DNA of 64,000 bases from positions 96,100,001 to 96,164,000 of the forward strand of contig OZ320315.1 of assembly GCA_976226885.1 (NCBI GenBank), written 5' to 3'. The translations under genes were made by a program, and so were the position numbers. Shown one piece after another: positions 8,354-12,906 of this stretch. The DNA is from Iphione sp. A-MEVVRFRX5. Its lineage: Eukaryota. Position 1 is the first letter of the stretch, and every line of letters begins with the position of its first letter. The notes under the pieces were generated by a model, which was given only the letters and a program-made list of their open reading frames with translations, was not told where the DNA came from and did no database searches.

Positions 8354-9007
8354 ATGACGCTGTCAATCTTTTGGATCATTTTATTGTTCTTCTTTATTGG
8401 AAAAAGCGACGCAAAGGAATTATGCAGGCAATGTTCATGTCTTAATGGACACGTGTATTGTGTCAAAACCGAGATAGCTTTTTTCTTCACCATAAACTAT
8501 CCACACCCGAGTGTTAAGATTCTGGAGTTGGTCGATCCCCAAGTCACCGGTGTCCGCCATGAATTTATTGCGCACATTCATAAAATCTTCCCAAACTTGC
8601 TTCAACTGAAAGGACTCCCGTTCGAAAGTGAATCTTCCACAAAGAATGACGACGAGGCTTGGATAACTTCGACACTTGACACATCAAACAGAGAAAATGA
8701 AGGTCGGTCAAGTTCTGATGAGCGGAATCATGTTACAGTTTCCGAAACTGATAAACAGTTAACTAGTATGATGGTGTTGGTTCAAGATAAGAAAATCACG
8801 GAAAGTACAGATCTAGTGATCGTCGGAGTCATCTTAGGAGTGGGAATTCTTGGTATATTAGCAATTGGAGTGGTAGCTTGGATCAAACATAAGGTGCAAC
8901 CACCGTGTTTAACTAGACGAAGTTTACATCCACAGCAGTCATTCTATGAACGAGCTTTCGAATGGCTTGGGATCCGTAGGTTAGTGTGTTCATTTTTACT
9001 CCCTTGA
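8354..9007 (+). CDS. Second mini-LRR-like type I membrane protein; probably exon 1 (8354-8979) of a much larger spliced gene
   Basis: Signal MTLSIFWIILLFFFIGKSDA, CRQCSC...YC cap, VKILEL...FPNLLQL, TM LVIVGVILGVGILGILAIGVVAW; AG|GTTAGT donor at 8979/8980. Confidence 0.75.
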   Translation: MTLSIFWIILLFFFIGKSDAKELCRQCSCLNGHVYCVKTEIAFFFTINYPHPSVKILELVDPQVTGVRHEFIAHIHKIFPNLLQLKGLPFESESSTKNDDEAWITSTLDTSNRENEGRSSSDERNHVTVSETDKQLTSMMVLVQDKKITESTDLVIVGVILGVGILGILAIGVVAWIKHKVQPPCLTRRSLHPQQSFYERAFEWLGIRRLVCSFLLP

Positions 9008-9311
9008 TTTTTTTTAGAGAAAAAAAAAAATCCCTCTAAAATTCTTTCAATCGTTAATTAAGAAAACAAATGGTAAAAAAAAAATTCTACTTTTATTGCA
9101 TCCTTGACAAATCTGTGTCAGCCTAGGTTGACAAGGTGGGCTCTGAATTTTTTTTTCTTGAATGAAGCTAACCCTAAAAGTAAAAAGTTGCTAAAACTAA
9201 ATTCAAGGGGAGTGTTAGCAATTTTCTGTGGGTTTTTTTTTTTAAATAAGAATAAAATTGGAAATAGGCATATATATATATTTTTGTTTTTTCCTATTCT
9301 ATTTTTCAAAG

Positions 9312-12300
9312 AAATAGATCTGTTCCTTCAAGAGTTAACAACAGACAAACTGATGCAGTGCTTGGTGAAGTAAACAGTGAGGATGATGAGGAACCCCCTG
9401 AAACACCCAATTTATGGCAAGATACTACATTTACTCAGAAGAGTAAACCAACAAATCGAAGCATTGGGCAAGCTCCGAAACCAGATTATACACGTGGTTG
9501 TCTATCAGGAATTGATGTTCTGAAAAAACTGTTTCTATCTAAAACACAGCACGGGGAACCTTCCACATCAGGTATGGGACCAACTCCAGCACCACGTTCA
9601 GCATCTCTTCCACCTCCACCTCTTCCAGGCCACTCAGCATTGACACCACGCCCGCGTTCAACATCACTTCCACCTCTTCCAGCCCATACATCAAACTTGC
9701 CAGCACGAGCACATTTTCCACCACCTCCTCTTCCACCCCACTCATCATCATTGTCAGCACGAGCACGATCATCGCTTCCAGGTCCCTCATCATCATTGAC
9801 ACCACGTTCACGTCCATCGCTTCTAGGACCCTCATCATTGTCTCCACGACCAAGTTCAACACTTCCAGGATCCCCATCATCATTGACACCTCGTCCACGT
9901 TCACCGCTTCCAGGCACCTCATCATCATCATCGACAGCACGTCCACGTTCAACGCTTCCAGTCCCCACATCTCCATATCCAGTACACCTTCATTCACCAA
10001 CACCACCAAGTTCACCTGACCCAGCACGTTCTTCACCGCCACCACGATCACCTGACCCAGCATGTTCTTCACCGCCACCACGATCACCTGTCCCAGCACG
10101 TTCTTCACCACCACCACAATCACCTTTCCCACAGCGTTCACCTGGACCAGCACGTTCTTCACCGCCACCACGATCACCTGACCCAGCACGTTCTTCACCA
10201 CGACCACGATCACCTTTCCCACAGCGTTCACCTGGTCCAGCACGTTCTTCACCACCACCACCACCACGATCACCTTTCCCACAGCCTTCACCTGGTCCAG
10301 CACGTTCTTCACCACCACCACAGCGTTCTCCTTTCCCACAGCGTTCACCTGGTCCAGCACGTTCTTCACCACCACCACCACCACGATCACCTTTCCCACA
10401 GCGTTCTCCTTTCCCACAGCGTTCACCTGGACCAGCACGTTCTTCACCAGAGCGAACGAGTCCACCACCTCCCCCTCCATCACCACGATCACCACCTCCA
10501 CCAGAGCGAACGAGTCCACCACCACGTTCACCTTTCCCGCAGCGTTCACCTGGTCCAGCACGTTCTTCACCAGCACCAACAGTGCAAACTAGCCCACCAC
10601 CACAGCGTTCACCTGGTCCAGCACGTTCTTCACCAGCACCAACAGTGCAAACTAGCCCACCACTATCACTCCGTTCACCACCACCACCAGAGCGAACGAG
10701 TCCACCACCACCCCCTCCATCACCTCGAACACCACCTCCATCACCAGAGCGGACGAGTCCACCACCTCCACCACCATCACCACGATCACCTACTCCTCCA
10801 CAACAATCTCAAACAGCATCACACTCTTCTTCTCACCTATCATGTTTTTCCAGTAGAAGTCTGAAGGATGTTCTCCCAAAGAACATGCAGAACACGTCTC
10901 CCAGTCATTCTCCAACAGAATGTTCACCCACTCATATACCTACACATACATCAGCATTGGAAAGATCATTTTCACCTGTAAACATCAGCAGCCTGAAGTC
11001 TGTTCAACCAGAAAGACAACAGAATGAGCCAGTGTTCTCCAGCAATAACCCTTTTGCTTCATTCATTAACAATGATGTTTGTCCCAACCCATCTGGCAAT
11101 GAACAGACAGCAGATGCAGTAGCAGCTAGTCTCTGCACTGTTTCCTCTCCAACCCATGACTCGTCAGCAGATGGAGAAGCAGTTTTAACAAGCAGCCCGT
11201 CGATAGATGTGAATTCTTCAACGCTGTCGCCTACTAATCCTTTTGTTCATGACTCGACAGCATATGCAGTAGCTGTTTTATCGGCCAGCCCAACGAGAGG
11301 TGTGGTTTCTTCAATGCTGTCACCTACTAATCCTTTTACCCATGTCTCATCAACATATGCATTAGCTGGTTTAACGACTACCCCGACGAGAGATGTGTCT
11401 TCTTCAACGCTGTCGCCTACTAATCCTTTTGCTCATGTCTCATCAGCATATGCAGTAGCTGGTTTATCGAGCAGCCCAACGAGAGATGTGTCTTCTTCTT
11501 CAACACTGTCGCCTACTAATCCTTTTGCACGTGACTCAACTATCCCCATCACCCCAACAAGAGATGACTCTTCAACACCTATCACCACCTCCACCACCAC
11601 CACCACCACCACCACCACCACCACCTCCACCACCACCACCACCACCACCACCACCACCCCGTCAGAGAGAGTTAAAGCTTCTTCAGCCACCCCATCTTGT
11701 CTGTCAACTAGAAAACCGTTTTCCACAAGCACTAACTCAAATGTTCCAATTCCAGGAAGTGTTTGTTCCAGTTCTAGTAGCATTGAATCAACAACAGATG
11801 TGGAAACAGTTACATCTAGCACCTCCACCACCACCCCACCAAGAGATGAGGCTTCCCTGACACAAAAGAAACCATTTGACACAGGTTCAAACACAGTTGA
11901 AGCAATTCCAAGAAGTGTGTGTTTCAAACCTACTCCCAATCTCTCGTCAACAGAAGTGGTTCCATCTTCAACCAACATCCCTTTTGCATCACTCAGCAAG
12001 CAACCAGAAATCATTGTCAAACTTCCTCTGAAACTTCTAGATGGAAAATTAATGGAAAAATTCGTCAAAACAATAAACCCAGTTGTCAGACTTGACTCGA
12101 CAGTGGTAGAAAAGTACTTGAAAACTTCAAAACAAACAACAGAAAAAACTAGTAACAAAGACATGAGTCAGTTAGCATGCTCTTCAGAAATACGGCAAAC
12201 AGGGTTTGAGTCTGATCCAGATGTGAACATTTCACAACGAACCACACCCCCTTCTACTCCAAGACGCTCAAGCCGCTTGTCTGTCAAGTCCCAACATGCA

Positions 12301-12906
12301 ACGGGGTTTGAGACTGATTCAGATGTGATCATTTCACAACGAACCACGCCCCCTTCTACTCCAAGACGCTCAAGCCGCTTGTCTGTCAAGTCCCAACATG
12401 CAACGGGGTTTGAGACTGATTCAGATGTGATCATTTCACAACGAACCACGCCCCCTTCTACTCCAAGGCGCTCAAGACGCATGTCTGTCAAGACCCAACG
12501 AGCAACGGGGTTTGACAGTGATTCAGATGTGAGCATTTCACAACGAACCACACCCCCTACTACTCCAAGGCGCTCAAGACGCTTGTCTGTCAAGTCCCAA
12601 CGAGCAACGGGGTTTGACAGTGATTCAGATGTGAGCATTTCAAGTCGTGCCACGCCCCCTTCTACTCCAAGACGCTCAAGTCGTTTGTTTGAAAAGTCCC
12701 AACGTGCAACGGGATTTGACAGTGATTCAGATGTGAGCATTTCAAGTCGTGCCACGCCCCCTTCTACTCCAAGACGCTCAAGACGCTTAGCAAGCATGTC
12801 GAAGACAAGTCACTCATCAGATGCTTCAGCTGACACAGCAATGGCGCCGCCACCGACACCTAAACGATTCCGCAAATTGCAGGTAATTGTTTTTTTCATT
12901 AACTGA
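9312..12906 (+). CDS. Giant Pro/Ser/Thr-rich repetitive ORF (~1,190 codons), probably an internal exon 9312-12882
   Basis: Open from about 9300 to 12906 with no ATG until 9574; pyrimidine tract then AG at 9310-11 (also 9316-17, 9331-32); CAG|GTAATT donor at 12882/12883. Confidence 0.75.
10000..10800 (+). repeat. Coding tandem repeats encoding RSP(G/D)PARSSPPP / RSPFPQ / ERTSPPPP units
   Basis: Recurrent ccagcacgttcttcacca and cacctttcccacagcgttc modules. Confidence 0.9.
11586..11660 (+). repeat. (ACC)n microsatellite encoding poly-Thr
   Basis: Direct reading of the accaccacc... run. Confidence 0.9.
12199..12795 (+). repeat. Six 102-bp (34-aa) coding tandem repeats TGF(E/D)xDSDV..S.R.TPP.TPRRSxRL
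   Basis: Unit starts at 12199, 12301, 12403, 12505, 12607, 12709. Confidence 0.95.

Follow-up and report, generated by a model that had tools for sequence, protein, structure and literature searches.

The locus analysed here raises the question whether a small membrane protein and the giant open reading frame (ORF) that follows it on the same strand belong to two genes or to one. Both lie in a 64,000-nt stretch of contig OZ320315.1 from Iphione sp. A-MEVVRFRX5 (positions 96,100,001 to 96,164,000 of the forward strand, hereafter the window), within the right-hand part of an adintovirus-like Maverick/Polinton element that covers window positions 1-18,476 and whose left end lies beyond the window. 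The element is a Maverick/Polinton by four markers (polymerase, integrase, ATPase and protease), and the gene in question is cargo, positioned between the protease and the element's right end. The first-pass annotation had proposed that the two are joined by a hidden splice; it named neither the host element, nor the sibling gene, nor the tail motifs described below. We find such a join to be the best reading of the region: on support that is wholly indirect, the splice from 8979 to 9312 (or to 9318 or 9333) is probably real.

Exon 1 (8354-8979, +) begins at ATG 8354 and holds 626 coding nt, or 208 codons and 2 nt. On recomputation, its donor ATCCGTAG/GTTAGT at 8979/8980 is in phase 2, and the exon starts at 9312, 9318 and 9333, each preceded by AG, are all in phase 2 for the giant frame, which is open from 9268 and has its first in-frame ATG at 9574, as had been reported. 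A phase match of this kind is a 1-in-3 chance event and the three acceptors are not independent tests of it; the AG at 9335 is in phase 1 for the giant frame. Counted to the donor at 12882, the earlier length of at least 1,399 aa holds only for acceptor 9312; 9318 and 9333 give 1,397 and 1,392 codons. The predicted intron (8980-9311, +) measures 332 nt, has stops in all three frames, with a read-through stop at 9005-9007 and an AATAAA at 9251, and contains 27% GC versus 41% in the flanks. The two best pairs of GC change points, 9234/9320 and 8992/9320, are nearly tied, and the downstream edge falls at 9316-9320.

Further evidence for the join comes from the 87 coding-like codons ahead of the first in-frame ATG (9313-9573, +), which include an acidic patch. 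This stretch was stop-free in 28 of 5,000 dinucleotide shuffles, and its resemblance to the codon usage of the element's core genes was matched by 2 of 5,000 stop-free nulls and, among 80 equally long host stretches free of stops, by 2. By thirds, the codon signal was equalled in 0 of 4,000 cases for the first 29 codons and in 233 and 495 for the next two thirds. The signal thus peaks right after 9312, upstream of acceptors 9318 and 9333, and counts toward the join.

A second two-exon gene of the element (15119-14045, -; 87 + 229 codons) provides an internal control, since its second ORF likewise opens in phase and has no early ATG. Its donor AA/GTGAGT at 14856 is in phase 2 and is followed by a 121-nt intron, after which acceptor 14735 opens 229 codons in phase; two of the six AG sites examined lead into a long frame. 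A TATA-like box lies near 15210, and no informative family match was found.

The giant frame itself is coding. Exon 2 (9312-12882, +, with alternative starts at 9318 and 9333) contains 1,190 stop-free codons (9313-12882), with 0 stops in this frame, whereas the five remaining frames contain 33, 59, 129, 12 and 54. The tandem repeats within the ORF make up 23 rows, which overlap and represent about eight arrays; every row has a period divisible by 3, compared with 16 of 44 outside. Splice sites were scored by means of a generic donor/acceptor table and ranked within the element strand (859 GT and 1,129 AG on the + strand, 1,226 donors and 1,033 acceptors on the - strand). On this scale the phase-0 donor at which the giant ORF ends, CAG/GTAATT at 12882/12883, ranks 11 of 859. 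Beyond it lies the putative 3' end (12883-13445, +). Acceptors downstream give exon starts at 13048, 13085, 13464 and 13635, at most 2 bases off the earlier figures, and a GC-richer island at 13047-13190 together with an AATAAA at 13423 favours a short last exon from 13048 (+2 residues) or 13085 (+58). Unspliced read-through past 12883 would add 7 residues, and the 3' end is short in all cases examined. Downstream of the giant exon, a 41-nt sequence (spacing 49, at 13077-13166) and a 36-nt sequence (at 13313-13384) are each exactly duplicated in tandem.

Exon 1 resembles the element's core genes in codon usage (0 of 5,000 stop-free nulls score as well) and encodes a small membrane protein. Its translation begins with a signal peptide at residues ~1-20 (8354-8413, +; hydropathy peak 1.66 at residue 1, predicted cleavage site), followed by a four-cysteine cap (C24, C27, C29, C36) with about two strands resembling leucine-rich repeats (LRR; 8414-8617, +), a Ser/Thr/acidic stalk (8618-8812, +) and a single Gly/Val/Ile-rich transmembrane helix that is followed by KHK (8813-8884, +; hydropathy 2.88, residues 156-174). 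Hydropathy in the joined protein peaks solely at residues 1 and 156, and exon 2 contributes no peak. What had been called a tiny ectodomain thus amounts to about 135 residues beyond the signal peptide. As for the description as receptor-like, the LRR likeness lies below every threshold: there was no Pfam LRR match, LRR clusters made up nine of ten Atlas rows at 0.86-0.87 only, matches to CD180 and TLR3 were weak (E 0.25-1), and two structure models were poor (pLDDT 47 and 32). We therefore treat both receptor-like and LRR-like as leads only.

Head to head with this gene lies a sibling (6948-7868, -) of the same plan, with signal peptide, Cys cap, LRR-like module, Ser/Thr stalk and membrane helix. 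The two share a divergent promoter region (7869-8353) with 7 WGATAR sites in 484 nt versus about 1.5 expected. An intron of 102 nt with donor AAG/GTATGT (7140/7139) is placed 13 codons past the sibling's helix and leads to a 29-residue last exon from 7037; its donor ranks 7 of 1,226 and its acceptor 3 of 1,033. A profile of the two ectodomains gave three matches among 1.84 billion proteins, of which P0001 and P0002 were set aside as generic LRR proteins. The third, P0003 (386 residues, Logan), is 37% identical to the sibling ectodomain over 103 residues (E 5e-16), and its membrane helix passes into a Pro/Ser/Thr-rich stretch of about 158 residues that includes one NPF and has a basic end. P0003 shows that such an architecture can carry a Pro/Ser/Thr tail, but its bearing on the gene studied is indirect, because exon 1 is only weakly like the sibling and not significantly like P0003. 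The sibling and P0003 may represent an undescribed mini-LRR membrane family. A VNNR word in common with P0003 was rejected as not significant.

Other searches for relatives were negative. Exon 1 had none among proteins of 365-2,000 or 119-380 residues or in viral and metagenome contigs, and none was found for the last 350 residues of the tail. A further profile matched no locus in contigs from viruses, genomes or metagenomes, and exact look-up of ten window proteins gave no match. Queries with the capsid, polymerase and integrase likewise led to none; two viral_contigs stretches met in the polymerase search were relatives but yielded no locus. No sister element was found in these searches.

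The region encoded by exon 2 had been described as a disordered cytosolic tail, and its 51% Ser/Pro/Thr content and lack of any hydrophobic segment support this description; under the two leading readings, the latter would place the tail inside the cell. From its start, the tail consists of the acidic patch, a Pro-rich block, five NPF motifs and poly-Thr; after a short segment that lacks repeats come six units of 34 residues and, last, TPKRFRK. The Pro/Ser/Arg-rich repeat block (9577-10872, +) contains 432 residues, 154 of them Pro, with a net charge of +41, and includes eleven SPxPARSSP-type units and seven SPF motifs. NPF occurs five times (at 11047, 11236, 11329, 11422 and 11518; region 11047-11526, +) versus 0.15 expected, from two origins, four copies being SPTNPF in 93-nt repeats. 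The poly-threonine run (11583-11658, +) is followed by the six 34-residue repeats (12202-12813, +), each with GF[ED][ST]DxD, TPPxTP and RRSxR[LM]. The last of these takes the form RRS[SR]R[LM] in all six copies, and the motif columns are invariant over the six units; when one unit was kept, 103 of 20,000 shuffles of the sequence produced a copy of the motif, which was picked post hoc. The basic end TPKRFRK (12856-12876, +) resembles a nuclear localization signal. A single PVVRL of PxVxL type (12079-12093, +) was rejected as evidence, being at chance level (0.65 expected).

The same composition bears on whether the tail faces outward. If donor 8703 (phase 1), which lies upstream of the membrane helix, were spliced to a phase-1 acceptor, the Ser/Pro/Thr region would be secreted and mucin-like. 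The 51% Ser/Pro/Thr and the poly-Thr run would suit a mucin, and donor 8703 scores slightly higher than 8980 (2.8 vs 2.2). The NPF, RRSxR, CDK-type and basic motifs are, however, intracellular signals, the helix exon is still coding-like and the phase-1 acceptors near 9312 are weak, and we give a secreted product very little credence.

Several observations weigh against a spliced membrane protein with a functional tail. Donor 8980 (score 2.2) ranks 32 of 859 and is only moderate, as is acceptor 9312 with its AAG, at rank 72 of 1,129; acceptors 9318 and 9333 come at ranks 439 and 221. Stronger sites, overlooked in the first-pass annotation, compete, namely donors 9136 and 9572 (ranks 3 and 4), acceptor 9018 (rank 5) and, before the helix, donor 8703. 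An internal exon of 3.57 kb is unusual, the context of ATG 9574 is favourable to initiation, and there is a TATA-like run at ~9271. The codon test is liberal, as a presumed chance ORF in the intron, at 9077-9370, scored 48 of 5,000. The sibling's intron is in phase 0, unlike the phase 2 predicted here, and shuffle tests gave 38 of 3,000 for exon 1 versus the sibling and 434 of 3,000 for exon 1 versus P0003. The P0003 tail has no significant alignment with the start (2,677 of 3,000) or end (2,106 of 3,000) of exon 2, its likeness to the NPF region (29 of 3,000) being compositional only. Four of the NPF motifs derive from a single repeat unit, and the six RRSxR motifs also share one origin in one unit. 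In addition, a frameshift in the ATPase gene of the element (see below) means that this copy is possibly inactive or mis-assembled. Amino-acid constraint among repeat copies had to be rejected as evidence, given that pN/pS is 0.77-0.95 in the 102-nt repeats and 0.82 in those of 93 nt; short SPxPARSSP units gave 0.36, from five changes. Two candidate exons between the competing sites were rejected: a coding exon 9018-9135 has stops in every frame, and an exon from ATG 9070 meets a stop after 18 codons.

Repeat pN/pS values near 1, the split ATPase and the failure to find a relative of either exon are what would be expected of a drifting passenger, that is, unexpressed or dispensable cargo whose repeats grew by slippage and whose motifs are functional in looks only. 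This we consider highly improbable in view of 1,190 codons without a frameshift or stop, while repeats just outside have periods of 49 and 36 nt, and of the motif columns that do not vary over six units.

The competing sites around 9574 also allow two separate genes. The first would encode a 217-residue membrane protein that ends at the stop at 9007, with poly(A) after 9251, and the second a soluble 116-kDa nuclear nucleosome binder from ATG 9574, either transcribed from its own promoter or preceded by a leader, be it a non-coding exon (donor 9136) or one added by trans-splicing. The G at -3 and +4 of ATG 9574, the AATAAA at 9251, the TATA-like run and the third-ranking donor of 859 at 9136 all fit such an arrangement, as do the RRSxR[LM], CDK-type and basic motifs, which suit a nuclear protein. 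Left unexplained are the 87 open coding-like codons, whose signal is strongest farthest from the ATG. Moreover, five out-of-frame ATGs between 9312 and 9574 would precede 9574 on a transcript starting at ~9300, unless the weak acceptor 9550 is used. Two genes, the main rival reading, are thus unlikely in our judgement, although a soluble form from ATG 9574 could coexist with the spliced form as an isoform.

It is also conceivable that the first splice is real and that the giant exon is cut internally. The donor CAG/GTATGG (9572-9577, +), which overlaps ATG 9574 and is in phase 1, could be joined to the phase-1 acceptors 9629, 9683, 9914 or 11447 within the ORF, or to others beyond, giving shorter tails in which part or all of the repeat blocks are missing. 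This donor ranks fourth of 859 and the in-phase acceptors 9683 and 9629 third and fourth of 1,129, and a 3.57-kb internal exon would no longer be needed. Yet CCA/G acceptors fall out of Pro codons and hence are always in phase 1, the skipped stretches contain 41-50% GC versus 23-27% in the introns of the element, and the entire frame has been kept open through many duplications. Shorter tails of this kind therefore seem rather improbable, and we retain the join of exon 1 to an uncut exon 2. A short-tailed isoform next to this product, as suggested in the first-pass annotation, is possible (stop at 9005-9007, tail of ~40 residues). Intron retention is the less natural route to it; given the AATAAA at 9251, intronic polyadenylation would be the more natural one.

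On balance, we lean towards a mechanism in which the gene encodes a spliced type I viral membrane adaptor, comparable to vaccinia A36, with a chromatin-binding-like end. With one splice, the product would be a type I membrane protein some 1,400-1,460 residues long. Outside the cell, the small Cys-capped LRR-like module on its stalk might set location or partner. On the cytosolic side, short linear motifs, duplicated in tandem and in frame, would have built up an unstructured tail of ~130 kDa. Endocytic and actin factors with EH or SH3 domains could be recruited by the NPF repeats and the Pro-rich block of this tail, as intersectin is by A36. The six RRSxR[LM] repeats could bind the acidic patch of the nucleosome where the tail comes into contact with chromatin, be it during open mitosis or once it is freed from the membrane. 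The flanking TP and RRxS sites may be phosphorylation switches, and polyadenylation at 9251 would yield a short-tailed form that resembles the sibling product. Frames, phases, hydrophobic segments, repeats and motifs were computed; the splice is inferred from such features and the adaptor role at a further remove.

A bolder and doubtful version would make the product a membrane-anchored multivalent nucleosome binder that combines an LRR-like sensor, NPF motifs and six HMGN-like arginine anchors. Chromatin would be tethered to the membrane in mitosis, or the tail cleaved and sent to the nucleus, and the family, with the sibling and P0003, would have had its tails swapped and expanded via the post-helix intron. 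If the join holds, a Maverick owns a receptor-like adaptor that pairs A36-type endocytic with HMGN-type chromatin motifs, an uncommon combination. The usual annotation of accessory genes by plain ORFs would halve this gene and begin its large part 87 codons late. Little is known of the effects of Mavericks on the cells that carry them. We suggest that spliced annotation of Maverick cargo regions may reveal further such genes.

The core genes that define the element were found upstream of the cargo. ORF 3-1904 (+) encodes a family B polymerase of the protein-primed type (motifs KLIGNSAYG and DTDS) with NADAR at its C-terminus (1509-1889, +; E 1.2e-11, above the cut-off) as the sole Pfam report. 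Enzymes with this domain cleave ADP-ribose off guanine bases of DNA, and the fusion may shield the element's DNA from some host modification. The integrase (3267-4409) matches rve (E 1.8e-09) and Chromo (E 1.2e-07) in Pfam. The packaging ATPase has the Walker A motif GATSSGKT and a Pox_A32 match below the Pfam cut-off (E 0.037); its gene (1996-2618, +) is broken by a frameshift near 2124, within an A-run region, which is a mutation or an assembly error. An adenain-like protease has the His, Asp and Cys motifs and a Peptidase_C5 match, also below the cut-off (E 0.007). By size and position we take ORFs 5100-6458 and 4449-4817 to be the putative major and minor capsid genes; neither has a Pfam or PHROG match, nor does the major one have any among PDB sequences.

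To the right of the cargo gene, an orphan 222-codon ORF (16809-16025, -) is preceded by a well-scoring 94-nt intron (16809-16716), apparently in the 5' untranslated region, which brings the likely introns of the element to at least four. Repeated GGCGCC/CGCCATCT-like sites lie upstream of this ORF. A 30-codon ORF (15906-15817, -) ends at a CAG/GTAATT donor, and nearby acceptors yield short continuations only. A BIR gene (17751-17230, -; Pfam E 4.6e-15) encodes one IAP-like BIR and has no RING domain. Between it and the terminal repeats is a tRNA-Phe(GAA) (17921-17993, -), called by ARAGORN, which looks intact, with 68.1 bits in Rfam and an acceptor stem that is paired throughout. The terminus ...ACTACT at 18471-18476, preceded by 46-nt repeats at 18179-18365, is the only end within the window; by the terminal-motif rule for such elements we take it as the element's end. 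Introns and gene content point to an animal host, and the host flank beyond the element contains two single-exon EamA-type transporter genes (20815-21849, +, and 31565-30336, -; Pfam E 3.6e-10 and 7.2e-10). At 31719-34003 there are fragmented ORFs, presumably a decayed DNA transposon judging from motif likeness, with no Pfam match for 31719-32168. An assembly gap of 138 N at 50135-50272 is distant from the studied gene.

Spliced cargo in Mavericks has precedents. In nematodes, the intron-bearing Maverick cargo genes wasp-2, krma and the fusogen MFUS-1 have been reported (10.1101/2022.07.12.499685). As here, introns occur in genes of the cargo region while core genes are intronless, and MFUS-1 combines a signal peptide with a single helix (10.1101/2022.07.12.499685). 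The proportions are reversed, as MFUS-1 has a large gB-like ectodomain and a short tail, and the cargo here, unlike that of the nematode elements, sits between the protease and the right end. Adintoviruses, which are the same type of element, carry accessory genes such as PLA2X, GasderminX, Cupiennin, Oncoid, Bcl2 and IAP, and the IAP homologues among them recall the BIR gene found here (PMC8502044). The main text of that report mentions neither splicing nor leucine-rich proteins; its supplements may list unnamed 'Adintoc' proteins of such a type. The words 'transmembrane' and 'mucin' do not occur in the part of PMC11071296 that was covered, and within the main text of mostly open journals we found no literature on a leucine-rich-repeat membrane protein of Polintons. 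P0003 follows the order proposed here, from the signal peptide through Cys cap, LRR-like module, stalk and helix to a Pro/Ser/Thr tail that contains NPF and closes with a basic SP/TP end. It is clearly related to the sibling and not significantly to exon 1, has a tail of only ~158 residues and lacks RRSxR.

Viral acidic-patch binders such as LANA, IE1 and foamy virus Gag tether to chromatin by an arginine anchor (PMC9040877), and the word 'membrane' is absent from the text of that review. A genome-tethering DNA-binding domain is not evident in the studied protein. The HMGN-like nucleosome motif reads RRSARLSA in HMGN, RRSSRLTS in Dsup and RRSARIAT in Dot5, with three essential arginines (PMC13347269). 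All six studied copies retain the three arginines, and three copies read RRSSRL as in Dsup. Known carriers of this motif are soluble nuclear proteins with one copy, whereas here it occurs six-fold, in a mobile element and probably in a membrane protein. Region 9574-12882 matches no Pfam family, HMGN included, and its product of at least 116 kDa is not of the small soluble HMGN type. Spliced cargo, viral membrane proteins with NPF and viral acidic-patch binders are each known, and in the same literature we found no account of their union in a Maverick.

Vaccinia A36 is a viral integral membrane protein in which three NPF motifs of the cytoplasmic tail recruit intersectin (PMC10883800), and NPF motifs are ligands of EH domains (10.1101/2024.09.30.615448). 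The studied protein likewise has several NPF motifs in a predicted cytoplasmic tail, although its link to the membrane is inferred, the tail greatly exceeds that of A36 in length and has basic repeats at its end, and there is no family match. The Nck/Grb2 tyrosine motifs of A36 have no counterpart here, as none of the seven tyrosines of the studied tail fits YxN, the Grb2 motif. The protein is thus neither an HMGN nor an A36 and has only motifs in common with them, and an A36-type action is the most likely model for the middle of its tail.

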